In this document: positions 1 through 12,121 of the stretch, in pieces | Layout of the letters: each line of letters begins with the position of its first letter | Position numbering within the stretch: position 1 is the first letter of the stretch | IMG/VR virus record: IMGVR_UViG_3300047198_000026 | Span: 38,593 to 102,592 of that record | Length of the DNA stretch: 64,000 nt | Source: a virus | Direction: 5' to 3' (one strand) | The notes under the pieces: generated by a model | Database searches by the model: none | What the model was told of the DNA's origin: nothing | Seen by the model: the letters and a program-made list of their open reading frames with translations, nothing else | Program-made: the position numbers and the translations under genes

Positions 1-195
1 AATTTACCTGAGTGTCAAGGCTGTGAATTTATAACCTTTTGTCAAGGTGGTTGTCCTTATAGTCGTAAGTTGACTTACGGAACTTACGACAAGAGAACTC
101 CATTTTGTGAGGAGCTGAAAACTCTTTACCCAAGGGTGCTTGAATTGGCTAAAAAATGGAAAGAATACCAAGAACGTATAATGAAAGGAGAATAA
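1..195 (+). CDS. 3' end of a radical SAM/SPASM protein (truncated by window edge)
   Basis: Frame 1 reads NLPECQGCEFITFCQGGCPYSRKLTYGTYDKRTPFCEELKTLYPRVLELAKKWKEYQERIMKGE*. This is a SPASM CxxC..C.GGC motif closely matching the C-terminus of 4279..5313. Not in the ORF track. Confidence 0.85.
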   Translation, partial: NLPECQGCEFITFCQGGCPYSRKLTYGTYDKRTPFCEELKTLYPRVLELAKKWKEYQERIMKGE

Positions 196-197
196 AT

Positions 198-1373
198 ATG
201 TTAGTTTCCAATGCGTCATTAAACTTGACTCAAGAATGTAATTTAAGATGTGAATATTGTTTTACGTATGGGCACACATCTAAACGGATGAGTTGGGCTG
301 TCGCAAAAAAGAGCGTAGATTTTCTTTTCAATAATGCTAAACGTACAAAAGAAAATAAAATGGTTAGAATAGATTTTTGGGGAGGGGAGCCACTATTAGA
401 ATGGAATTTGTTGAAGAAGATAACTTTGTATGCAGAAAGTGTATCGAAAAGAACCACCATTCCTGTGCATTTTGGTGGAACGACCAATGGTACACTCCTA
501 ACTGAAGAGAAATTTACATTTTTGGGAAAACATGGTATTAAGTTTTTGGTATCTCTTGATGGCACGGCAGAAAGTCACAATAAATATAGGGTATTTAGAT
601 CTGGTAGGGGGTCTCACGCTCTAATAGTAAAAAATATGAAGAAGGTTTTGAAGAAATGGCCTGATTATGCTGTAAGATTATCCCCTTATCCAGAAAGTAT
701 TAAACGATTTTATAACGACATTAAATTCTTAATAGATCTGGGTTTTAGGAATGTAATGTATAGTCCTGTATTTGAGGCAAACTGGAAAGAGAAAGATTGG
801 AATAAATGGGAAGATGAAGGTTATAAAGTAGTGGATTTATTATCCGAAAAGAAGAGAGAAGGGATCAATATTTTTATTCATCAGTTTGATGAATTTTGTG
901 GTCAGGAGTTGGATCAAAAATACCCTTGTGGAGCGGGGAGGCATTATATTGGGATTGACATAGATGGAGGAATATATCCTTGTCATCGATTTTGTAAATT
1001 TGATGGAAAATCTTGGAAAGAAAAGGAAACTTGTATCGGTCATGTAGACTTGGGTATCATTAATCTTGAATTTATAGATAGGTTTATTAATTTTAAAACC
1101 TGTGAAGGATGCGAGTTTGCTAACACTACTCCTTGCTGTGGTGGTTGCCCAGCGACTAATTATGATCTCACAGGAGATATAAATACACCCACAGATAAGA
1201 ATTGTAGATGGATTAAGGTACAAACCAAAATTTCCAGATACATGATGGAGAAAGAAAATCTGAAAAGAACAACCCCACAAGCGGTTATGGATTTATTAAG
1301 ACGGCTTGAAATGCGGGTGGAGCAAATAGAAAAATATATCGAGGATAAAAACAATTTATCCACGGTTACTTGA
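198..1373 (+). CDS. Radical SAM/SPASM peptide-maturase-like protein
   Basis: CNLRCEYC, FWGGEPLL, TTNG, SLDG, and SPASM CGAG...GGIYPC...CxxC...C.GGC. Start moved from 156 to the ATG at 198 behind an AAAGGAG RBS. Confidence 0.92.
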   Translation: MLVSNASLNLTQECNLRCEYCFTYGHTSKRMSWAVAKKSVDFLFNNAKRTKENKMVRIDFWGGEPLLEWNLLKKITLYAESVSKRTTIPVHFGGTTNGTLLTEEKFTFLGKHGIKFLVSLDGTAESHNKYRVFRSGRGSHALIVKNMKKVLKKWPDYAVRLSPYPESIKRFYNDIKFLIDLGFRNVMYSPVFEANWKEKDWNKWEDEGYKVVDLLSEKKREGINIFIHQFDEFCGQELDQKYPCGAGRHYIGIDIDGGIYPCHRFCKFDGKSWKEKETCIGHVDLGIINLEFIDRFINFKTCEGCEFANTTPCCGGCPATNYDLTGDINTPTDKNCRWIKVQTKISRYMMEKENLKRTTPQAVMDLLRRLEMRVEQIEKYIEDKNNLSTVT

Positions 1374-1416
1374 GCTTGCTGAAAAGTGGAAGAGATATCA
1401 GGAGCATATGTTGTAA
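1348..1416 (+). pseudogene. Remnant copy of a radical SAM C-terminus
   Basis: Reads KTIYPRLLELAEKWKRYQEHML*, versus KTLYPRVLELAKKWKEYQERIM at 118-183. No start; in-frame stop upstream at 1327. Confidence 0.75.
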
Positions 1417-1487
1417 GGAGTCATGAAACGGTAGAATTTATTCCTCCAGATGGGAGCTTTTTCAATTATTTTAATTAGAGAGGGAAT

Positions 1488-2738
1488 ATGACTGAATTTC
1501 CAATTACCAGATGTAGTATTAATTTGACTAGGGCCTGCAATCTTAAGTGTGCCTTTTGCTTTACCTACGGATGCCGTCCTGGCAGAATGGGATGGGAAAC
1601 GGCCAAGAGATCGGTCGACTTCCTATTTCACAATGCCGAGAAGGCCACCATCCAAGAAGGAAAGACTGTTGAGATAGGATTTTGGGGAGGGGAGCCACTA
1701 TTAGAATGGGAATTATTGAAGAGGATAACCCTGTATGCGAAGAAGACGAAACCCCCATCAGTGAATCTGATGTTTGGTGGAACGACCAATGGTACACTCC
1801 TGACCCCTGACAAATTTGCCTTCCTGGATGAACACAAGATATTCTTTATGGTCAGTATAGACGGGCAAGAGAAGAGCCACAACCTATACCGTAAGTTCCA
1901 TGATGGAAGGGGTTCACATTCAGTGGTAATGAAGAACCTGGAGTCCATCCTAAAGAAATGGCCTTTCTATAGAGCCCGGTTGTCTCCCAGTGTGGAAACA
2001 GTCCCTGACTTCTTTGAGAATATGAAATACCTCTTTGACTTTGGATTCGAATATGTTATGTTCTCTCCTGTCTATGAAGGCAATTGGACTCCTGAGGTGT
2101 GGAAGACATATGAGGACCAATGTAAGTTGGTAGTGGATTACATGGTGTCAGAGAAGGCCAAGGGAAGGAATTTGAAAGTAGAACACTTCGAATCCTATAA
2201 GGGTTCTGACAATTCTAAATGGCCATGTGGGGCTGGAAGGTTCTATGCGGGAATAGACATTGATGGGGCCATCTATCCTTGCCACAGATTTAACAAGTTT
2301 AATGACATGCGACCATGGACTGAAAAGGAAGTTTGTATTGGACATGTGGATGTTGGAATCACCAAACCAGACTTTAGAAAGTTATTCACCACAGACTGGA
2401 AGCCTGAATGTGGAGAGTGTCCAAGACTTAAGGACACACCTTGTCATGGGGGATGTTACGCAGTGAACTTCGACTTTACAGGAAAGATTAATACACCCCA
2501 TCTAGGACTTTGTTCCTATGTTGAGATGCAAAGAAATGTCTCAAAATACTTGGAAGAGAAACTTCCTTCCCCACCCCAACAGGGAACAAGGGGTTGTATT
2601 TGTTATAATATGTGTTACGCTGAGGGAACAGACCAAGAGATTACTCATAGGGACAAATCGAATGATATGACGTGCGTGTGCTATAACGCCCAATATAATG
2701 GGCCTTTGGATGAGAAAATTGCTAGGAGGCTTATATAA
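1488..2738 (+). CDS. Radical SAM/SPASM peptide-maturase-like protein with Cys-rich C-terminal tail
   Basis: CNLKCAFC, FWGGEPLL and SPASM motifs; paralog of 198..1373. Tail is CICYNMCY...CVCYNAQY. Confidence 0.93.
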   Translation: MTEFPITRCSINLTRACNLKCAFCFTYGCRPGRMGWETAKRSVDFLFHNAEKATIQEGKTVEIGFWGGEPLLEWELLKRITLYAKKTKPPSVNLMFGGTTNGTLLTPDKFAFLDEHKIFFMVSIDGQEKSHNLYRKFHDGRGSHSVVMKNLESILKKWPFYRARLSPSVETVPDFFENMKYLFDFGFEYVMFSPVYEGNWTPEVWKTYEDQCKLVVDYMVSEKAKGRNLKVEHFESYKGSDNSKWPCGAGRFYAGIDIDGAIYPCHRFNKFNDMRPWTEKEVCIGHVDVGITKPDFRKLFTTDWKPECGECPRLKDTPCHGGCYAVNFDFTGKINTPHLGLCSYVEMQRNVSKYLEEKLPSPPQQGTRGCICYNMCYAEGTDQEITHRDKSNDMTCVCYNAQYNGPLDEKIARRLI

Positions 2739-3545
2739 GTGATAGCCATTCTTATTCAAAAAGAGCCCTATCCTATCCATGAGGGCCATAAGGCCGTAAT
2801 CAACTATGCCCGGTCTTTGGGTGATCCGATAGTTATTATGCCCCCTCACGCAGGTATGTGGCATAAATACCTAAAAGGGGGAATAGAGGAAGTAGGAGAA
2901 GAGAATATTGATGTTAGGATAAACTCTATAAAAGAATTAGGTATTCCAGTTGAGCGAATGCGCCCTGTCTCGGTTCACAAGGATATAAGACAAAAGGCAT
3001 TAGATTTTGCCTCTGCCTTTATGGAACCTTATAAAGACACATTAATTTTAGACAGGTATATTCAAGTGGCAACCTTGCTTGTGGCAGGGACACACCTAAG
3101 ACGTAAGATATGGAAAGACCAGATGTTGAAGTCCAAAATCCCCATTGAAGCCGCGGCTAGGGGTCCGTCAGTGATATCCTTCTTTCTTGCCCAAGTAAAT
3201 CCCAAGTTGGGTAGGCCCCCTTGTTATGTGTACCCTAAAATAGTTAAAGACCCTCGTACAGGAATTCAATTCCAGAGTTCTATAAATCAGATTTTGGGTT
3301 CACACAGGCCAGCCTTAGAAAGACTTCCCATGGTGCTTGGAGAATTTAAGGATAGGTTGAAAGTGGGAAGAAATTTAGAATTAGAGAAGGAGATTAATGG
3401 ATCTTACTACTATACTCCCTGGAAAATCCAGGAGATTGCTGTGTTTGAAGGGGGTATGGTTCCTGGAAGATTAGAAGTTGTATCCTTTAGGTTTCCCTGT
3501 TTAAGAGGGAGTATACTAATTGAGGTAACTGAGTATTATCAGTAA
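2739..3545 (+). CDS. HIGH-family nucleotidyltransferase, divergent pantoate--beta-alanine ligase (PanC)-like
   Basis: IHEGHKAVINYAR..GD.IV resembles the PanC HIGH region; PKIVKDPRTGIQFQSS resembles the PanC P..R..DGLA.SS motif. Confidence 0.55.
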   Translation: MIAILIQKEPYPIHEGHKAVINYARSLGDPIVIMPPHAGMWHKYLKGGIEEVGEENIDVRINSIKELGIPVERMRPVSVHKDIRQKALDFASAFMEPYKDTLILDRYIQVATLLVAGTHLRRKIWKDQMLKSKIPIEAAARGPSVISFFLAQVNPKLGRPPCYVYPKIVKDPRTGIQFQSSINQILGSHRPALERLPMVLGEFKDRLKVGRNLELEKEINGSYYYTPWKIQEIAVFEGGMVPGRLEVVSFRFPCLRGSILIEVTEYYQ

Positions 3546-3565
3546 CAGGATGGAGGAACTAAGAG

Positions 3566-4282
3566 ATGTTTCAGTTAAAGGGTTGTTCAAGGTTAATACC
3601 TAGGGGAGGAGTTGTCATTCGTGGGATGTCCTATATAGACGTCAATGATGTCCTTCTTGAAGACAGGATGGCAACTAAGAAGTTTTTCGCTGAAGATTAT
3701 GAGTACGGTGAGGCCGTTAGGAGAGGGTTAGCTCATTATAGAACTATGGAAATAGGTAGGCAATTTATTGTTTACGTTTATAAAAATCTGGACCTTCTAG
3801 GATGCCTCCTAAGTTTTGAACTACTTAATAACATGGATGGATATGGTAAGGGAGACTTTAATCATTCCCAATTAATCTATCCTAAATACAGGCATACCCA
3901 ATTTTCTAGGTACTCATCACTAAACTTTAGGCACATGATGTTCCGGTCTGGAGTAGCCAATAAAATATATGTCTATGCTCCCTCTTCTAGATCAAAATCG
4001 CATTCCTTTCTAGATGCGATGGATGTGTCTAAAATGCCTTGTGCATCAGGATTACCATTTGAATTTATTGATATCCGATTTTCGGAGCACATCTCAGTTT
4101 CAAAAAGATTACATCTTGAGGGAGTCCCTTTTCTTATTCTGGAATTTGATGGTGAGAAATATAGGAAGCTGACTTTAGATGATTTTGCAGAGAGTGTCCC
4201 CAATAAGGGTAAGGAACTTGTAGCCCAGTGGTTATCTGAGGCCGACCATGCGTCTGAATTGGTCAGAGGAGAGGTAAAATGA
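3566..4282 (+). CDS. Hypothetical protein, possible GNAT-like fold
   Basis: GGAGG RBS; LIYPKYRHTQFSR is reminiscent of GNAT motif A. The fold call is weak. Confidence 0.4.
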   Translation: MFQLKGCSRLIPRGGVVIRGMSYIDVNDVLLEDRMATKKFFAEDYEYGEAVRRGLAHYRTMEIGRQFIVYVYKNLDLLGCLLSFELLNNMDGYGKGDFNHSQLIYPKYRHTQFSRYSSLNFRHMMFRSGVANKIYVYAPSSRSKSHSFLDAMDVSKMPCASGLPFEFIDIRFSEHISVSKRLHLEGVPFLILEFDGEKYRKLTLDDFAESVPNKGKELVAQWLSEADHASELVRGEVK

Positions 4283-5313
4283 TGCCTGCGTTGATGCTAT
4301 ATATAAATATCTCTAATGCTTGTAATCGGCAGTGTGATCATTGCTATTCCTCCAATACTGGTGAGAAGATGAGTAAAGAAACAGTTGGGGAAGTGGTTAA
4401 GTGGGCTAAAGGTATTTGCGAGGAGGAGAAAGTTAAATATCTCAAATTAATTTTCTTAGGAGGGGAACCTCTAAATAATATAGATAACCTTTTGCTGATG
4501 GTTGACTTATTCAATAAGCACCTTCCTCAGCTTCAAGATCCTTTTTGGGATACTAAGTATATGTTGTCCACGAATGGTGATTTGATCACTGATTCTATTC
4601 TAAGAGAACTGAAGAGCAGGAGAATTTGGGTATCGCTGAATCCGTCAAACAGTAGTATGGGAGACCTTGAAGATAAGATATTAAAGGTTAAAGAAGTGAA
4701 TGGAGGGTGTGCATTACTTACGGTGTTAAACGACGCGAATTTGCCAAGAGCCGTGGATCTGGCTAAATTGGCAGTTAGGCATGCCTGTTTTATTAGAATG
4801 AATAGGATGTTTCAAGGGTCATCAGATCCAGAATACATTAGAGAGTACGGTAGTCAATTGGGCAAAATGATGGACATCTTCCTTGCTGCCAAGAGGGTAG
4901 CCTGGCCTAACTGGATGGTAGATTCTACTATGCCTGTAAGGTTTGCTGACATTTATTCCCAGACAACCAGAAATTGTTATTCTTGTGGTGAGTGGCTCTT
5001 TACCATCGATTGGGATGGGATGATAAGAAGTTGTAACGCTGATCCTGATACGGTTATTGGGTATATTAGAACTCACAAGCATAGGAAGGATTTTAAATTC
5101 CCCCATAGGTGGAGTGCTGCAAATCTTCCAGAGTGTCAAGGCTGTAAGTGGATTGTTTTGTGTCAGGGTGGATGCCCTTACTGTAGAAAAGTAGCGTATG
5201 GTACGTACGACAAGAAAACTCCATTTTGTGAGGTGCACAGGGATATCTGGCCTAAACTTATGGAACTTACGGAGAGATGGAAATTAAGTCATAGTGGGTT
5301 GTTTACACGATGA
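4279..5313 (+). CDS. Radical SAM/SPASM protein
   Basis: CNRQCDHC, FLGGEPL, STNG, and SPASM C...DGMIRSC...CQGC...CQGGCPYC. Confidence 0.9.
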   Translation: MMPALMLYINISNACNRQCDHCYSSNTGEKMSKETVGEVVKWAKGICEEEKVKYLKLIFLGGEPLNNIDNLLLMVDLFNKHLPQLQDPFWDTKYMLSTNGDLITDSILRELKSRRIWVSLNPSNSSMGDLEDKILKVKEVNGGCALLTVLNDANLPRAVDLAKLAVRHACFIRMNRMFQGSSDPEYIREYGSQLGKMMDIFLAAKRVAWPNWMVDSTMPVRFADIYSQTTRNCYSCGEWLFTIDWDGMIRSCNADPDTVIGYIRTHKHRKDFKFPHRWSAANLPECQGCKWIVLCQGGCPYCRKVAYGTYDKKTPFCEVHRDIWPKLMELTERWKLSHSGLFTR

Positions 5314-5323
5314 GAGGAAAAAT

Positions 5324-5743
5324 ATGGACAATAAATATGTAGCAGGCTTGTTTGATGGAGAAGGGTACATAACAATATCTAGGTATAAAAGACCAGAAAC
5401 CGGTACCATGCACTATAGTCCTCAAATTGGAATATCAATGTGTTGGAAACCAACTCTAGAAGAGATGAAAGAACAGTTTGGTGGGTCTCTTCGTAAGCAC
5501 AAGTTGTTGAAAGGGAAGACGATCTGGAGATGGGTAATCTATAATGGACAGGCCAAGAACTTTTTAGAAGTCATCCTACCTGAACTAAGGGAAAAGAGGT
5601 CTCAGGCAGTTCTAATTATGGATTATTATATAAATCTTGAATCTAGGGGTAAGTCTAAAATTCGGTTATCCGAGTCTGAAGTTGGAACTAGAGAGAAGTA
5701 CTATCGCGATCTCAAAGGTCTAAAGAAAATGGAGTGGGTGTAA
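5324..5743 (+). mobile_element. Free-standing single-motif LAGLIDADG homing endonuclease
   Basis: YVAGLFDGEGYI motif and typical FGG / ILP.LREKR.QA segments. ATG at 5324 follows GAGAGG. Confidence 0.85.
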
Positions 5744-6465
5744 TGTCCTGGCAGAAGGCATGGCCAAAGGTCTGGGCAGCGGCTGCCACATGTGCTGTTG
5801 ATGTAGTTAGTGGAAGCACAGAGCAGATACGGGCCAACTGGAAAGCAATAGAAGACTGGACTAAGAAGGGTCACTATAATATGGACAACGTGACCAGCGC
5901 TGGAGCCCACGTATTGGGACAAGTAGGAACTCTGGCAGTGTCCTCTACCTCTCAAATTGCTACCATATCAGCCCCGGGAACGGGAGCATGGGCTTGGGAT
6001 ACAACGAAAGGGGAATTACAGATTCTAACGTCAGGAGGAGTTTGGGAAAGTGCCACCGCTTCAGCCTTCTCAAGAGTGAGAAAAGTCCATACGGGGATTT
6101 CAATACCAGATTCAATTTGGACATCAGTACCTTGGTATGACTCTACTGCTCAAAGAACCTACGACGGACTATCCGAATTTGGAAGTTATACAGTATTTAC
6201 TGCAATTAACGCTGGTTACTATTTAGTTCGAGCATCTGCCCACTGGGCTGCTGCTACAACCGATTACCAAAAAGCTATTGGGATTTTTAATGGTGCCTAT
6301 GCTACTGCAATAGGAAGACGGTTTAGTAGGTGGAAGAGGACCACTTCGGTAGTTGATGTTGTTCAGATGGCTGTAGGTGACCAACTCTCAATAAAGTGTT
6401 GGCAAAATAGTGGGGTAGCCTCTAGTATTGATGAGGCTAAATTGAGCATCACGAGGTTGAGTTAA
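5743..6465 (+). CDS. Tail fibre/virion protein with C-terminal C1q-like domain (paralog 1)
   Basis: FTAINAGYYLV...MAVGDQLSI C1q-like pattern; N-terminal NW.AIEDW...H shared with the next two genes; TAATG overlap. Confidence 0.65.
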   Translation: MSWQKAWPKVWAAAATCAVDVVSGSTEQIRANWKAIEDWTKKGHYNMDNVTSAGAHVLGQVGTLAVSSTSQIATISAPGTGAWAWDTTKGELQILTSGGVWESATASAFSRVRKVHTGISIPDSIWTSVPWYDSTAQRTYDGLSEFGSYTVFTAINAGYYLVRASAHWAAATTDYQKAIGIFNGAYATAIGRRFSRWKRTTSVVDVVQMAVGDQLSIKCWQNSGVASSIDEAKLSITRLS

Positions 6466-6466
6466 A

Positions 6467-7183
6467 ATGAGCTGGGACGCAAGTGTACCTATTAGTGGAA
6501 CACGAATTGTTGATATCCCTACTGTACATGGAGCTAATTGGACTGCCATTTCAGACACTTGGGGATTGGAGCATCAAGTATGGTCAGTGGTTGCATCAGG
6601 ACGACATAAGCCAGGAATATCTGGGTTAGTTGGTTCTATAGCATCTTCGGCATTACCCCTAACTGCTGAGGAAGGATGTGTGGTTCTTGATGATGCCTCC
6701 TCTGGAGTGGGATGGGTTTATTCTGGGGGCAAATGGCAAATGCCCTCCTCAGGATTTGCCACCGTTCGTGTACATGTTTATAGAGGAACTAACCAGACCA
6801 TATCCGCGGGAACTACTGCCACAGTGGGATTTTCCACCTCAGGAGTGGACAGTATGGCATCATTTAATACTACAACGTTTACCTTTACATCTCCCGCAGA
6901 CGGCTACTATCTAGTGAATCCCGTAATCAGTCTCACTCCAGATGTGGCAAACAAAGCAGTTTACCTTCAGGTTCAACATCTGGATTCTCTAGGTACTATT
7001 CGGTATACAGTAACAGAGAGCAAAGGGACTTTGTCCACAGATGAATTCAGCATGGAGGTTTCACCCGTTCTTTATCTATCAGCAGGAGATTTGATTAAGA
7101 TAACATTCTATCATAATTCAACGTCAATGGCCATTCAGGGAGGAGCAGAACGCACCTTCCTTGATATTTACCGTATGTCATAA
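6467..7183 (+). CDS. Tail fibre/virion protein with C1q-like domain (paralog 2)
   Basis: FTSPADGYYLV...LYLSAGDLIKI plus the shared N-terminal module. Confidence 0.7.
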   Translation: MSWDASVPISGTRIVDIPTVHGANWTAISDTWGLEHQVWSVVASGRHKPGISGLVGSIASSALPLTAEEGCVVLDDASSGVGWVYSGGKWQMPSSGFATVRVHVYRGTNQTISAGTTATVGFSTSGVDSMASFNTTTFTFTSPADGYYLVNPVISLTPDVANKAVYLQVQHLDSLGTIRYTVTESKGTLSTDEFSMEVSPVLYLSAGDLIKITFYHNSTSMAIQGGAERTFLDIYRMS

Positions 7184-7192
7184 GGAGTGTAA

Positions 7193-9058
7193 ATGTCCTT
7201 ATTTAGAACAGGATATCCGTCATCTATCCACAAAATATATGAAATTCCTGGTGTAACCCAAGAAAACTTTGATGCTATAGAAGACTGGTCTGGTATTGAG
7301 CATTCAAGTTTGACCTCTGCTTCTTCTGGGCAACATGTGGCTGGGGGAGCAGGAGTCGTTTATGTGGGTAAAACACTGGACATTTCTGAATTATCTCCGG
7401 CCTCTGGGGCTATGGTTAGGAATCGTCAGACGGGTACCTTTGGGAAATACGACGGATTAGACTTCTATGGGATATGGGCAAATAAGTACTCTCGGGCTCG
7501 GGCCACCTTGTCAGGGGCGGTATTTCCCCTAACGGCAGACTGGCAAGGTAGGTTTGACTGTAACCAGATTTTGTGGGACTCCTTACATGAATTTCACATT
7601 GATCCAGCGGACGCATTATCTGGATCATTTACTCCCTGTGCCGATGGGTTCTATCATGTTATTGCTAGTTTTGCCATCTCAGCAGCTAATACACAAGTAA
7701 CAACTAACACATCACGACCCTCTGGAAATGGAACTGTACAGTGGATTCCCAGTGGATATGGGGTAGGTTATAATTATAAGAACGTGTGGGAATATCCTAG
7801 TGTTAGCGACGAAATGCACTATTTTAATGAGTCAGCAACATCTGGAGTATATGATTCCTTTAATCTATCTCCCGCAGCCACTGGAGGACCTGCAGGATCT
7901 TCTTCTGTTGTTATAGGAGCAACTTGGAGAGTTCGGCTTCGGAATGGAAGTTGTGCTTGTAATAATACGTGTTACCATGATATTACCACCTGCACTTGTA
8001 ATAATTCCTGCTATGAAGATACGGCCTGCACCTCCTGTGATATGACATGTTACCAACAGGGAAGTTGCACATGTAATAACTCGTGCTATGGTCAGGCTGG
8101 ATGTACCTGTAATAACACCTGTTATAGCCAAACGTGCACGACCTGTAATGCCACCTGTTATAGTCAAACGTGCACATGTAATTATACCTTATATGGACCT
8201 CATTGTAACACATGCTACATTACGTGCTATTGGTTTGCTTGGTGCAAAGGTGATCAGAGCTGCACCTGTAATAATACCTGTTATGGGGGATTCACCTGCA
8301 CCTGTAATAATTCATGCTATGGACAATCCTGTACCTGTAATAGCACTTGTTATCAACAGCAATGTGCCTCTTGTTATAATACTTGTTATGGGTATAGTGG
8401 ATCTTGCACCTGTAATAGTTCGTGTTATGGACAAGGCTCTTGCACTTGTAATAATTCTTGCTATGGTGATACCCCTTGTTCCTGTGATGTAACCACCTAC
8501 GGGTATTCTCATTCGTGTGAATGTGATGCGTCTCAGTATCTAGGAGTTTTCCAAATTGCTCCTGAGATATATGATTCCGCTTTAGGTTGGGCAAGGGGGA
8601 CACTAACATCCATAGCTGGAACAGCATATGGAGAATATACATATGTATGGGACACTGACCCTTTTAGAACCGCCGACTGGACAGCTGAGACTGCCTCAGG
8701 AATTACAAGTATAGCATATCGCCTGTTTACTCCCTACACGGCTGCCTGTGGAGTGTCGGCTGATGTGAGCCAATTTTATTTAAGCCAATCTTGGTTTCCT
8801 GTAAGACCCGTGTTGCGTTTGCAGATAGTAACGAATGAAGCAAATGCGTCCTCTTCGGTGGTGGCCCAGACTCAAGAGACCATTGCAGAAGCAGGGGCAG
8901 AAAGTTATCAAACTGTCTCTCTATCCACTATAGTTCCTCTCAAAGGCGGAGACAGGCTTAGTTTTAAGGTTAGGAAAACCCGAATTGATGATATGAGTAC
9001 AAATAATTATGCCTATTCCTTTGTGAGTGTGCATCGGTTAGGGGGTCAGTGGATTTAA
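7193..9058 (+). CDS. Tail fibre/virion protein, C1q-like, with nested Cys-rich repeat insert (paralog 3)
   Basis: Shared N-terminal module; the C1q-like halves FTPCADGFYHV and VPLKGGDRLSF are separated by ~370 aa that include the Cys repeats. Confidence 0.7.
   Translation: MSLFRTGYPSSIHKIYEIPGVTQENFDAIEDWSGIEHSSLTSASSGQHVAGGAGVVYVGKTLDISELSPASGAMVRNRQTGTFGKYDGLDFYGIWANKYSRARATLSGAVFPLTADWQGRFDCNQILWDSLHEFHIDPADALSGSFTPCADGFYHVIASFAISAANTQVTTNTSRPSGNGTVQWIPSGYGVGYNYKNVWEYPSVSDEMHYFNESATSGVYDSFNLSPAATGGPAGSSSVVIGATWRVRLRNGSCACNNTCYHDITTCTCNNSCYEDTACTSCDMTCYQQGSCTCNNSCYGQAGCTCNNTCYSQTCTTCNATCYSQTCTCNYTLYGPHCNTCYITCYWFAWCKGDQSCTCNNTCYGGFTCTCNNSCYGQSCTCNSTCYQQQCASCYNTCYGYSGSCTCNSSCYGQGSCTCNNSCYGDTPCSCDVTTYGYSHSCECDASQYLGVFQIAPEIYDSALGWARGTLTSIAGTAYGEYTYVWDTDPFRTADWTAETASGITSIAYRLFTPYTAACGVSADVSQFYLSQSWFPVRPVLRLQIVTNEANASSSVVAQTQETIAEAGAESYQTVSLSTIVPLKGGDRLSFKVRKTRIDDMSTNNYAYSFVSVHRLGGQWI
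7952..8539 (+). repeat. 16 imperfect C-x(1-2)-C-x3-[C/x]-Y coding repeats (consensus CTCNNSCY)
   Basis: Counted by hand: 46 Cys in 196 aa. DNA units such as tgcacctgtaataat recur. Confidence 0.95.
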
Positions 9059-10701
9059 TGACTACTTCTAATATTCTAAGTCAATTAGGACAAGTTCTCT
9101 CCCAAGCAGGGGCTTCACAGAATGCCCCCTTAATTATAGACAAATTTAATATAGGGTTGGTGGATGAGGAAGTCCTTTCGAAGTACCAATACAGTCCACA
9201 GGCCTGTGTTGATTGTCAGGATGTAGAGTTATTTCCTAGGGGTACTCTTAGTAGAAGGAAGGGTTTTGATAAATTAAATTCAGCTCCTTGGTATAATGCA
9301 CCCATCAATAAAATATTTCAATGGCAGACTATAGATGGAGTAAGCCTATTCCTTGCCTTTTGTCCAGCATCAGGGTCCACTAGCGCGGATATCGGCTCAA
9401 TTACGATTACAGGCTCTTTTGTCCTTACTCCGATATTATCTGTGTCTTCTGCGTCTGCAAGTTGGGATCCAGAATGGACGGATGTAATTTCAGTAACAGC
9501 CTATTCGGGCTCTGCTGTATTTGTTTATCCAAATACTGAGGTGCCATACGCTTGGAGTGGGCAGGCTGGTTCATTGGTTGAATCCTTATCGGCCTCTTCT
9601 CCAAGTGGAGCAAAATATTGTGCGAGTTATGGAAATCACCTTTTATTAGCTAATGTTTTAGATGTTAACGGAACTCGTCGGGGATCTAGAGTGGTGTGGT
9701 GTTATCCGGGCAATCCCGGTTATTGGCCTGCTACCTACTATCTAGATTTTGATGCCGATGATGGAGACGAGATAACCTCAATTTCATCTTTGGGTAACTT
9801 GGTAGTCGTACAGAAAGAGACAAAGACTTTTGTAATGCACTACACTGGTGATGTGGACATATTTAAAGGGGAAAGGATATCAACATCTACTGGGTGTGTG
9901 GCCCATAATTCTGCAAGAGAATTTAAAGGGGTATTATACTTCTTGGCAGTGGACGGAGTTTATAAATTTGATGGTGTTTCCCCTCCAGTAGAATTGTCAG
10001 GAAACATTAGAAACCACTTTAAGCAGTTGAACAATCAATACCGGCATATGAGCCAGACGACTGTTTTTCCTGATAAGGACCAGGTTTGGGTGTCTGTTCC
10101 CTATGGATCCTCTATATTTCTAAATAGGATCTACGTTCTAGATTTTGTACAATCGGCCTGGACTAAGTTTAACATCTCCTGTGCATCCTTGAGCCTTATT
10201 CGATATGGAGCCAACTTGGCTTATGAAAACTTTCCCTTGGATTATGGAAACTATGACTTAAAGATAGGAGACGCATATGGGGCTCGATCGGAGATCATTG
10301 TTACTGGAACCTATGACGGATTTATCAATAGGTATGGATTATTTAATACGGATAATGGAGTCCCTGTCATAGCCTATTGGACTAGCTGCTGGCTAGATTT
10401 TGGGATGCCCAACTACAATAAGAGAGTTGTCAGGGGGACTGTCTGGTTAGAGAAGGAAGGAGATTATGACCTATCTGTTTTTGTCTTTGCTGACTGGGAC
10501 GATGTCACTCCTATTAAGACATTTACTGTATCTCTGTCAAGTACTGTTCCAACTATCGAGAAAAGACTTGACTTCACTAGGAACTTACGATCCTTTCAAT
10601 TTACTGTCACTACTTCTGGGGCTACGGCCTCTGGATCTCCTTTTAGGATTCATAAGATGGCTTGGGATTGGGTACCCAAGGGGAGGACTCAGGTCAAATG
10701 A
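9058..10701 (+). CDS. Tail tubular/nozzle protein (T7 gp12 / P22 gp10-like beta-propeller)
   Basis: G.LSRRKGF near the N-terminus, beta-rich, GCVAHNS...VLYFLAVDG, LDFG.P...KR. Lies just before the ejection-type genes. Confidence 0.7.
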   Translation: MTTSNILSQLGQVLSQAGASQNAPLIIDKFNIGLVDEEVLSKYQYSPQACVDCQDVELFPRGTLSRRKGFDKLNSAPWYNAPINKIFQWQTIDGVSLFLAFCPASGSTSADIGSITITGSFVLTPILSVSSASASWDPEWTDVISVTAYSGSAVFVYPNTEVPYAWSGQAGSLVESLSASSPSGAKYCASYGNHLLLANVLDVNGTRRGSRVVWCYPGNPGYWPATYYLDFDADDGDEITSISSLGNLVVVQKETKTFVMHYTGDVDIFKGERISTSTGCVAHNSAREFKGVLYFLAVDGVYKFDGVSPPVELSGNIRNHFKQLNNQYRHMSQTTVFPDKDQVWVSVPYGSSIFLNRIYVLDFVQSAWTKFNISCASLSLIRYGANLAYENFPLDYGNYDLKIGDAYGARSEIIVTGTYDGFINRYGLFNTDNGVPVIAYWTSCWLDFGMPNYNKRVVRGTVWLEKEGDYDLSVFVFADWDDVTPIKTFTVSLSSTVPTIEKRLDFTRNLRSFQFTVTTSGATASGSPFRIHKMAWDWVPKGRTQVK

Positions 10702-10901
10702 AAGTGGCAATACGAAGAGTGTCTGAGTGGGCCTCAGGGAATCTTGACAACCTGAACAGTATTCTTCTTGAGCATGAGCATGCTATTAACGCGAATACAT
10801 TTGGAACCTATGTATCCTGTGCCGGAGCATCTGGTGTGTCTATCGGGTACATTGCTATAAAAGACGATACAGGCACAACTAGGTTTATACCAGTATGGTA
10901 A
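10698..10901 (+). CDS. Small tail-associated protein
   Basis: ATGA overlap with the nozzle gene and GGAGG RBS. Confidence 0.5.
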   Translation: MKVAIRRVSEWASGNLDNLNSILLEHEHAINANTFGTYVSCAGASGVSIGYIAIKDDTGTTRFIPVW

Positions 10902-10921
10902 GTAATAAAATTTAAAAAAGG

Positions 10922-12121
10922 GTGATTAAAATGGGAGATTATGATATGGGATCTTGGGATGTGGGTATTGATTATCAACCTCAATATGATTGGAGTCAAT
11001 ACGCTTTCGATCCATATGCTGGATACGGATATGATACAGGAGAGGCTGCTCCAATAGACTGGAGCCAGTATATGAATCAGCCTACAGACACTTCCTCGAT
11101 GGAAAACTACATTGGTGATTATACCGGAGGAGGAGGAACTCCCATTCCAGGTTATGTTTCTACCCAAGGGATTGGTGGGGGTGGAGGAGTGTATGGTGCT
11201 GCTGATGCTGCGGGTGGAGGAATTGGTCAGTATGCCAATTTAGCAACAACCATAGCCGGAATTTTGGCCAAACTAAAGGGTGGAACTGGCACAAAAAGCA
11301 CCGGCACTAACCAAGCTGCCGGTGCTATTCAATACCCTCCCCAGAAGGCTGCCGGATTGCAAGGAGCCCAGCAGGCCATTAGTAATTTGAGGATTCCAGG
11401 AGTTAATCAGGTCGATTTGGCCTCTTTGCTTGGACTAGGTCAAAAGAACCTTACCACTATGCAGCAGCAAGTTATTGATCCAACGACATATTTAGCCCAA
11501 CATGGAGCCCAGTTTGTTGACCCAACCCAGTATCAAAATATGGTTAATATGGCTAACAAGATGTATGGCCCTGATTACTTGAGACAACAGATTGCTCCTT
11601 TAATGAGTAATGCTGGAATTACAGGTGGGGCAGACTTAAGTAGAGTGGTTGATCAATCATCCAATATAAATCAAATGAGAAACCAGGCCATTATGACTGC
11701 CTTACAAAATCAAGCAGGGGCAACAACTCAACAGAATATTCTTAACCAGTCAGCAAAAACAGGAGCCATGGGAGCCCTTCCTGGATTCCTTGGACAACAG
11801 GCTGGTTTAGTTTCAGACCCATATAGCCAAGCTTTAAATATGTCAACTGCTGGGGGACAAATGACCTTGGCTGACTTTTTAGCCTTGGCCAATGCGTCAT
11901 CCCCAACGGGCAGTACCCAAGCCGGAACTCAAACTCAGGCATATGGTCAACAGAATCTTCTCCAACAGTTAGGACAACTTCTGTCTTCAACAGGGGCAGC
12001 AGGTTCAGTTCAGCAACAGGGACAGTGGAATCCAGTAACGGGACAATACCAATATCCCCCACAGCAACAGCAGACTAGTGTAATTAGTTCACTGCTTAGC
12101 GCACTTGGACTAGGGGGCTAA
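10922..12121 (+). CDS. Putative internal virion/DNA ejection protein
   Basis: Gly/Gln/Ala-rich low-complexity sequence in the position typical of podovirus ejection proteins. Confidence 0.55.
   Translation: MIKMGDYDMGSWDVGIDYQPQYDWSQYAFDPYAGYGYDTGEAAPIDWSQYMNQPTDTSSMENYIGDYTGGGGTPIPGYVSTQGIGGGGGVYGAADAAGGGIGQYANLATTIAGILAKLKGGTGTKSTGTNQAAGAIQYPPQKAAGLQGAQQAISNLRIPGVNQVDLASLLGLGQKNLTTMQQQVIDPTTYLAQHGAQFVDPTQYQNMVNMANKMYGPDYLRQQIAPLMSNAGITGGADLSRVVDQSSNINQMRNQAIMTALQNQAGATTQQNILNQSAKTGAMGALPGFLGQQAGLVSDPYSQALNMSTAGGQMTLADFLALANASSPTGSTQAGTQTQAYGQQNLLQQLGQLLSSTGAAGSVQQQGQWNPVTGQYQYPPQQQQTSVISSLLSALGLGG

Follow-up and report, generated by a model that had tools for sequence, protein, structure and literature searches.

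We analyzed a 64,000-nucleotide stretch of viral DNA (here called the window), which spans bases 38593 to 102592 of the linear, 102,592-base record IMGVR_UViG_3300047198_000026 (completeness estimate, ~50%). At its 5' end lies a cassette with four genes for radical S-adenosylmethionine (SAM) enzymes of the SPASM type (rSAM1 to rSAM4), followed by three fiber-head genes, the last of which encodes a 621-amino-acid (aa) protein with a long array of cysteine-rich repeats (Table 1). The 38.6 kb 5' of the window encode a portal protein, a scaffold-like protein, a major head protein (phrog_1328; E 7e-39), virion proteins, and a 666-aa fiber, which places the rSAM cassette in a late structural operon. 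A first reading of the DNA (the original prediction) had proposed a large virion protein as the substrate of these enzymes.

Table 1. Features at the 5' end of the window, in window positions
Feature	Position	Strand	Basis or remark
rSAM1 C terminus, type-A short SPASM	1..195	+	TIGR04085 28.6 bits; gene start L003:19124
rSAM2, type-B radical SAM/SPASM, CteB/PapB-like	198..1373	+	PF04055 E 5e-15; NF047865 (PapB) 252 bits, cutoff 340
Remnant of a type-A rSAM C terminus, in a frame other than that of rSAM2	1345..1419	+	tblastn 64% over 25 aa to the rSAM1 end, E 9e-10 (small search)
rSAM3, type-B radical SAM/SPASM	1488..2738	+	PapB model 233 bits, cutoff 340
HxGH (HIGH-signature) nucleotidyltransferase-like protein	2739..3545	+	TIGR00125 E 0.002, PF01467 E 0.02 (weak); directly 3' of type-B enzyme
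GNAT-fold protein with degenerate acyl-CoA motif	3566..4282	+	AlphaFold2 pLDDT 83, pTM 0.84; Foldseek matches to GNATs
rSAM4, type-A short SPASM, motifs CX3CX2C and CX2CX5CX3C	4279..5313	+	PF04055 E 9e-11; TIGR04085 35.3 bits
Free-standing homing endonuclease inserted in the cassette	5294..5743	+	PF00961 LAGLIDADG_1 23.5 bits, cutoff 23.1; phrog_5046 E 8.5e-26
C1q/TNF-like fiber-head paralog 1, no insert	5734..6465	+	phrog_13989 virion structural protein E 1e-8; homologous to flanks of the 621-aa protein
C1q/TNF-like fiber-head paralog 2, no insert	6467..7183	+	Weak BclA_C and tail-fiber PHROG matches
621-aa fiber-head protein with nested insert holding the Cys array	7193..9058	+	Flanks confident in AlphaFold2
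Array of 16 units C-x-C-[N/D]-x-x-C-Y, 8 + turn (WCKGD) + 8; proposed substrate	7952..8539	+	Repeat count
Downstream virion structural protein	9049..10701	+	phrog_3287 E 3e-31; orthologs follow the array fiber in L005-L007

The cysteine array and the enzymes beside it

The array, whose 16 units had been counted correctly in the original prediction, covers residues 254 to 449 of the 621-aa protein and contains 46 Cys in 196 residues, in units such as CTCNNSCY. Across 479 units from 50 proteins, the consensus reads C1, Ser/Thr, C3, a fourth position occupied by Asn (54%), Asp (30%), or Tyr (10%), any residue, Thr/Ser, C7 (82%), Y8 (84%), and Gly, with a period of 11 to 13 residues. Most arrays have a single long linker, usually containing K-G or K-x, that sits exactly at their center. 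The counts on its two sides are symmetric: 8+8 in the 621-aa protein and in L008, 10+10 in P0003, 4+4 in a 97-aa protein encoded 5' of the window and in five others, and 2+2 in a protein resembling the central tail fiber J and in L017. Counting a leading CYxCHxCDT unit makes three further arrays symmetric, and one ortholog has 10+8. In an ortholog with 70% identity, 45 of the 46 Cys, 19 of the 21 Tyr, and 16 of the 19 Asn are kept; the remaining residues vary more freely, and entire units have come or gone beside the turn. Since the two termini of an array placed within a loop have to lie close to each other, a two-armed structure seems the natural reading of this layout.

The three tail-fiber-like genes identified in the original prediction are indeed paralogs, and their fold is C1q/TNF-like. 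For both flanks of the 621-aa protein, AlphaFold2 (AF2) gives a beta-sandwich that Foldseek matches to TNF/C1q ligand domains with a probability of 1.0, and the product of the gene directly before it is 26% identical to residues 8 to 182. Many relatives of ~240 aa match only residues 1 to 170 and 475 to 619, indicating that the array is part of an insert nested in the fiber-head domain. Searches with the 621-aa protein returned 12 homologs from a word index and 95 matches among 1.84 billion cluster representatives, ~25 of which reach the array; an alignment of the array alone is too variable to serve as a query. Embedded arrays reside in tail proteins of 500 to 740 aa. Their hosts comprise C1q-like fiber heads, a homolog of the central tail fiber J (phrog_31, E 5e-35; 2+2 units), the C terminus of a family ending in YEYPWT or YRYPWT, and proteins with PKD/VWA or F5/8-C domains. 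Neither the array nor the stand-alone array proteins, which measure 60 to 200 aa, have a model in Pfam, NCBIfam, or PHROGs.

One such stand-alone protein is encoded 1.5 kb 5' of the window (L003:18156-18449). It has 97 aa with 18 Cys and 13 Tyr, and it is leaderless, as array-type units begin at residue 6; in the proposed stand-alone substrates, the repeats begin at residues 3 to 6. The gene begins within a TAATG shared with the stop of the 666-aa fiber gene, and orf222, a GNAT-like gene, and rSAM1 lie downstream. The original prediction had found no small leader-bearing precursor in the window and had named a small precursor upstream as a finding that would count against it. The upstream finding does exist in part. 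The 97-aa protein, just outside, bears the same repeat without a leader, so it would be a second rather than an alternative substrate. It shares the N terminus MGMP and the C terminus KYAPDVWL[FL]Y with a 204-aa stand-alone array protein (L008). Further, the last 130 residues of the 666-aa fiber are 52% identical to L008:9539-9985, the protein encoded before the stand-alone array of this 37.7-kb phage, which suggests that the stand-alone protein could dock on that fiber end. The 666-aa fiber (L003:16156-18156) also has internal tandem repeats of ~60 residues (...SGTSAYFSS...DDSTLLFGKTLA.VVASGGG...).

The genes are arranged in two modules and are coupled by ATGA and TAATG overlaps. The upstream module runs from the 666-aa fiber through the 97-aa array protein, orf222, and type-A rSAM1 to type-B rSAM2. 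The module within the window consists of type-B rSAM3, the HxGH protein, the GNAT-fold protein, type-A rSAM4, the homing endonuclease (left out of the gene list in the original prediction), the two plain fiber heads, and the array fiber head. A remnant of a type-A C terminus ends in a stop and overlaps the end of rSAM2 just 5' of rSAM3, pointing to a past rearrangement, by replacement or duplication, at the junction of the modules. Scans of open reading frames (ORFs) and protein families found no gene for a protease or an exporter in the cassette.

All four predicted radical SAM genes are confirmed by their ORFs and by matches to PF04055 and TIGR04085, and they form the expected two pairs: rSAM2 and rSAM3 (type B) are 51% identical, rSAM1 and rSAM4 (type A) are 40% identical, and identity between the pairs is ~22%. 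The PF04055 scores of rSAM2, rSAM3, and rSAM4 (56, 59, and 43 bits) exceed the cutoff of 29.5, and the SAM-cluster motifs read CNLRCEYC, CNLKCAFC, CNRQCDHC, and CNRNCEGC. They are also SPASM proteins, as the TIGR04085 scores of rSAM4 and the rSAM1 fragment exceed the cutoff of 27, the CX2CX5CX3C core can be read in both type-A proteins, and the alignments of type B extend to the end of both the PapB model and CteB.

As for subfamilies, a hidden Markov model search of the kind that the original prediction had proposed ranked PapB first among the NCBIfam models for rSAM2 and rSAM3, followed by the SCIFF, CcpM, CXXX-repeat, nif11, and QhpD maturases. These scores remain below the curated cutoffs. 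The NF047865 (PapB) scores of 252, 233, and 61 bits compare with a cutoff of 340, which no homolog in 15 viral records reaches; rSAM2 scores 183 of 425 bits for SCIFF (TIGR03974), 175 of 350 for the CXXX-repeat family (TIGR04115), and 68 of 525 for the CrpC type (TIGR04463), and the type-B enzymes score 154 and 138 of 453 on the QhpD model (TIGR03906). Among solved structures, CteB (5WGG; E 1e-54, aligned over CteB residues 99 to 443) is closest to the type-B family profile, in which rSAM3 is the lead sequence. Because this alignment starts at CteB residue 99, type B begins at the radical SAM core and lacks a RiPP recognition element (RRE; RiPP, ribosomally synthesized and posttranslationally modified peptide). 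Indeed, rSAM2 has no N-terminal RRE. The features of a PapB-type system, an N-terminal RRE and a precursor with CX3D/E motifs, are missing from type B and its proposed substrates, which have the unit C-x-C-N/D-x-x-C-Y.

For type A, the search gave no named subfamily, and no NCBIfam family approaches its cutoff with rSAM4. Type A matches CteB, ChlB, and anSME weakly, and the aromatic cross-linkers DynA, YhhB, and XyeB, as well as anSME, match at about the weak level of PapB. Judged by its sequence, type A is a short, novel SPASM subfamily.

At their C termini, type-B enzymes other than rSAM2 have a tail with between one and three substrate-type units. That of rSAM3 (~2592-2700) consists of two substrate-like units, GCICYNMCY and CVCYNAQYNG, separated by a loop of ~20 residues. 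L009 and L011 share this layout; the tail has a single unit in L005-L007 and L016 and three units in L014. This tail may be self-modified, a product mimic, or a docking element. In L014:2287-5040 (917 aa), the type-B enzyme is split within its SPASM region by an apparent intein with LAGLIDADG endonuclease motifs; two over-long type-B homologs (L140:2493-5027 and L158:3205-5586; 845 and 794 aa) are possibly alike.

Two conserved partners accompany the enzymes. The gene originally read as a PanC-like ligase can be assigned only to the HxGH nucleotidyltransferase superfamily, as its matches are weak. It scores 0.87 in the ESM Atlas to viral cytidylyltransferase-like clusters, and its N-terminal HxGH motif is kept in three aligned large-phage orthologs and reads GLHDGH in the L016/L018 ortholog. 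The possible GNAT of the original prediction holds at the level of the fold. Its AF2 model has a predicted local distance difference test score (pLDDT) of 83 and a predicted template modeling score (pTM) of 0.84. Foldseek finds 93 PDB matches to it at E<=1e-3, and ranks 1 to 49, those listed, are GNAT-type acyltransferases or GNAT-like; the top matches have a probability of 1.0 and target-normalized TM scores of 0.5 to 0.66. The acyl-CoA motif A of GNATs (R/Q-x-x-G-x-G/A) is absent, and the segment reads YRHTQFSRY or similar in all homologs. The protein has no Pfam match even at E 5, and a homolog search with it returned only itself. Its gene is always directly 5' of the type-A gene with an ATGA overlap, in conserved synteny in L005-L008 and L016, and upstream orf222 is a divergent paralog whose stop overlaps the start of rSAM1 in the same way. 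An assignment of this protein as thioredoxin-like (ESM Atlas, 0.89; TM ~0.3) was dropped for the GNAT fold given by AF2 and Foldseek.

Co-occurrence of arrays and enzymes

The original prediction had proposed co-occurrence of enzymes and repeats across phage and metagenome contigs as a test, and the association is found in both directions. Starting from the arrays, a PapB-like rSAM is present in 14 of 15 array-bearing viral records, the exception being a 7.6-kb fragment, and in all five that are at least 90% complete. The distance between array and enzyme is mostly 0 to 5 kb, with two cases at 22 and 34 kb. Among 65 metagenome loci with arrays, an rSAM was detected at 38 under translation table 11 and at 53 after stop read-through, usually directly beside the array gene. 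Where the flank was long enough (at least 2 kb downstream or at least 6 kb upstream of the array), the fraction was 30 of 32, and the remaining two, the contigs with the 22- and 34-kb distances, carry the enzyme elsewhere on the contig. As read-through always lengthens ORFs, the automatic code choice was used for presence or absence only, and the recoded stop was assigned separately.

Starting from the enzymes, arrays lie within 10 kb at 13 of 16 viral loci with close type-B homologs (at least 34% identity), and the three misses are cut by contig ends. By comparison, none of 64 loci with more distant viral rSAMs has an array (Fisher p 1.8e-12). Viral contigs with type-A homologs carry arrays in six of six cases.

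The linkage is seen with different host proteins and on unrelated backbones, in genomes of 37 to 254 kb, which argues against the view that the arrays are metal-binding or disulfide modules that need no enzyme, with the cassette merely hitchhiking in the tail module and performing unrelated cofactor, nucleotide, or host-directed chemistry. Such modules would be in keeping with the frequency of Cys-x-Cys motifs in metal-binding proteins, with the failure of AF2 to fold the unmodified array sequence, and with the 12-residue period and C-x5-C spacing, which recall disulfide-bonded beta-helices. Helices of this kind are known from insect antifreeze proteins. The substrate-like units in the enzymes' own tails and the membership of these enzymes in a peptide-modifying SPASM clade are further points against this view, and we consider it highly improbable.

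The makeup of the cassette varies among phages. The core of type B, HxGH, GNAT, and type A is kept in three phages of 106 to 110 kb and in a 44-kb phage that has no array besides the 2+2 insert of a J-like protein. The complete 37.7-kb phage G004 has the stand-alone 204-aa array with GNAT and type A only, and a complete phage of 69 kb combines a C-terminal array protein with type B alone.

These differences bear on which arrays the enzymes would act on. They could mature only the small stand-alone repeat proteins, as a secreted RiPP or a small fiber accessory, and leave the embedded arrays unmodified and held by metal or disulfides. The leaderless 97-aa array gene directly 5' of the GNAT-like gene and rSAM1 would fit this arrangement, as would the stand-alone protein next to the type-A enzyme as the sole array of G004 and the many metagenome loci in which a small array gene is followed at once by a type-B enzyme. 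In three phages, however, G002 (100% complete), G003 (98%), and G012 (95%), the four-gene cassette is kept and the only array lies within an open frame of 511 to 679 aa, in G012 as the 2+2 insert of the J homolog described above. Our searches detected no stand-alone array in these phages, and the cassette is adjacent to the embedded array or ~4 to 5 kb from it. The leader, protease, and exporter of a secreted peptide system are all missing as well, and stand-alone and embedded arrays are alike in units, hairpin layout, and position after a fiber gene. Restriction to the stand-alone proteins is thus quite unlikely in our view.

Together, the linkage, the complete phages with embedded arrays only, and the absence of RRE, protease, and exporter strongly support the proposal that the SPASM enzymes act on a Cys-repeat tract of a large virion protein and not on a leader-bearing peptide. 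The original prediction stands in this respect, with the amendment that stand-alone arrays also exist; its idea of radical stapling in place of disulfides is hypothetical. Its description of the system as RiPP-like is apt for the predicted enzymology; it does not extend to a leader, cleavage, or export. With no leader or follower removed and no peptide released, the system falls outside RiPPs in the strict sense.

A side observation concerns metagenome contigs of 25% GC that carry an array and type-B pair. Many are unreadable under table 11 and full length on read-through, with rSAM genes that contain 12 to 14 in-frame TAG or 33 to 43 in-frame TAA codons in ~495 codons. The TAG contigs are L145, L147, L188, L191, and L196, and the TAA contigs are L163, L167, L170, L171, L176, L179, L181-L186, L189, L190, L192, and L193 (for example, L179:1607-3094 and L183:1284-2762). 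The in-frame stops align with Ala, Gly, Thr, Lys/Arg, Val, or Leu/Phe columns of homologs, with no single amino-acid meaning obvious. TAA recoding would be unusual for phages.

Proposed cross-linking of virion proteins

The best reading of these observations, to which we assign a probability of roughly 0.6, is that the enzymes cross-link the Cys residues of virion proteins, probably through thioethers to Asn or Asp. In this model, the late operon would coexpress tail proteins bearing hairpin arrays with dedicated radical SAM/SPASM enzymes that lack an RRE. A type-B enzyme would bind a repeat Cys at its auxiliary cluster and remove a hydrogen from the side chain of the conserved Asn/Asp in the fourth position, giving one Cys-sulfur-to-carbon (ranthionine-type) bridge per unit that spans either C1-x-x-N/D or N/D-x-x-C7. 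A further link or modification, distinct from the first, would be the work of type A together with the GNAT-fold protein. Once stapled covalently, the array would stand out from the fiber head or tail tip as a redox-inert rod or ladder, an advantage in anoxic, reducing sediment, where disulfides would fail. The unit itself is probably recognized at the protein level, because RRE, leader, protease, and exporter are absent and the arrays lie inside folded tail proteins.

One or more side-chain thioethers from Cys to Asn/Asp in each unit are the most likely product, since the nearest relatives of type B are thioether formers and Asn/Asp lies three residues from both C1 and C7. Both spacings have precedents. 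NxxcB joins Cys to the beta-carbon of Asn within an NxxC motif, where Asp is also accepted (PMC9389541), and CrpC acts on a 29-kDa protein of Cys repeats, forming ranthionine links at its C-X-X-Q/D motifs (PMC13692751). For PapB, the partner of Cys is Asp or Glu (PMC9413430).

The arrays could also be substrates for other chemistry, such as Cys-Tyr or Tyr-carbon (cyclophane-type) links, sactionines, epimerization, or oxidized Cys, or for acyl or nucleotidyl addition by the GNAT-fold and HxGH proteins. Tyr8 (84%) is as conserved as Cys, type A is without a close characterized relative and matches aromatic cross-linkers about as weakly as it does PapB, all scores lie below family cutoffs, and two accessory enzymes are conserved in the cassette. 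Still, the top models for type B (PapB, SCIFF, CcpM, CXXX-repeat, QhpD, and CteB) are all thioether formers by a wide margin, and an Asn/Asp three residues from two Cys fits known acceptor spacings (PMC9389541, PMC13692751). A different chemistry for the arrays is therefore a minority possibility that we regard as unlikely overall; it may apply most of all to type A.

Several points weigh against cross-linking through thioethers. The support comes wholly from gene linkage and homology, and with all family scores under curated cutoffs the reaction type is not confidently transferable. G004 has type A alone and G005 has type B alone, so the two types may be alternatives rather than steps of one pathway, and on two contigs the enzyme is as far as 22 and 34 kb from the array. 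Three Cys and one Tyr per unit also suit metal binding or disulfides formed after lysis. AF2 gives the array no fold (pLDDT <50 for residues 254 to 440 of the 621-aa protein), so that structure provides no argument for the proximity of the residues. Finally, this chemistry does not account for the GNAT-fold and HxGH proteins.

A more detailed picture can be drawn, which is possible but to which we would give somewhat less than even odds. Here, phages of anoxic habitats would build a ladder of 2+2 to 10+10 Cys/Asn/Tyr units, either inserted in fiber heads and tail tips or produced as a separate partner of the fiber. It would be cross-linked by two leader-independent rSAMs, possibly between its arms, with a GNAT-fold pseudo-enzyme and a nucleotidyltransferase-like protein as helpers and the type-B tail as template or target; the array would adopt a new fold only after modification. 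This would be the first case of a virus particle matured by radical SAM enzymes.

The closest precedent for a SPASM enzyme beside a Cys-repeat protein is CrpC/CrpA of Methanococcus voltae (Dieter et al. 2026, PMC13692751). In both the CrpA motif C-X-X-Q/D and the phage motif C-x-C-N/D, a Cys lies three residues before an amide or acid acceptor, and the CrpA array likewise has low AlphaFold confidence (PMC13692751). The two systems differ in that CrpC has an RRE and CrpA a 47-residue leader-like N terminus, neither of which is found in the phage system. Moreover, the CrpA unit has 17 residues, compared with 11 to 13 in a symmetric hairpin, and CrpC/CrpA is cellular, whereas the phage arrays sit in tail proteins.

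PapB/PapA (freyrasin) and CteB/SCIFF provide the best sequence models and the best solved structure for type B. They have three [4Fe-4S]-binding motifs and install several identical Cys cross-links in a repeated motif, as proposed for type B. Phage type B differs from them in lacking an RRE and in its score of 252 against the cutoff of 340, and its substrates are leaderless, have up to 20 units (10+10 in P0003), and have a motif other than CX3D/E. The substrate-like C-terminal tail of type B has no counterpart there. In NxxcB/NxxcA, a streptococcal RaS-RiPP system, the beta-thioether acceptor is an Asn (or a tolerated Asp) three residues before a Cys, which is the N/D-x-x-C spacing of unit positions 4 to 7 (PMC9389541). 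The likeness lies in this spacing; NxxcA itself is a leader peptide with one motif, controlled by quorum sensing. In QhpD/QhpC of quinohemoprotein amine dehydrogenase, a SPASM enzyme forms Cys-to-Asp/Glu thioethers in a subunit that is kept in a larger assembly. QhpC, however, is a single small subunit without repeats or phage context, and type B scores below the QhpD cutoff of 453. As far as sequences can tell, the enzymology is like ranthipeptide maturation, yet the system falls outside the named families on scores, RRE, and motif. It differs from them further in its viral structural context, symmetric hairpin, substrate-like enzyme tail, and GNAT-fold and HxGH partners.

Apart from small secreted peptides, very few proteins (QhpC and, in 2026, CrpA) are known to undergo radical SAM cross-linking. 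Our search of the literature for tail or virion proteins of phages modified by radical SAM enzymes, and for phage-encoded RiPPs and ranthipeptides, found no description of such a system. If the proposal is correct, it would add a step to virion assembly, an enzymatic, oxygen-sensitive covalent maturation. It would account for peptide-maturase-like radical SAM genes in phage structural modules and would provide a redox-independent substitute for disulfides in extracellular proteins of anoxic habitats. Leader-independent enzymes that act on a short modular unit inside folded proteins, as proposed here, would be attractive for protein stapling, and a hairpin array with no predicted unmodified fold may be a new structural motif.

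Genomic setting and neighboring genes

DNA nearly identical to the record occurs in freshwater-sediment metagenome runs; two of these may be its source, and six others, from separate studies, share 21 to 39% of sampled words. Among GenBank phages, neither megablast with window positions 1 to 9100 nor tblastn with the 621-aa protein gave a match. Two scans of GTDB species genomes found no relative of the array proteins and hence gave no host or prophage lead. A promoter and terminator scan of positions 1 to 11000 showed no excess over shuffled sequences.

Upstream of the window, the portal protein (L003:9275-11146) has a C-terminal low-complexity tail of ~90 residues rich in Gly, Pro, and Gln. 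Free-standing genes for LAGLIDADG-type homing endonucleases occur twice, once between rSAM4 and the first fiber head and once directly 3' of the major head gene (L003:13787-14170). Weak homologs of these endonucleases are found at other positions in L005 and L006.

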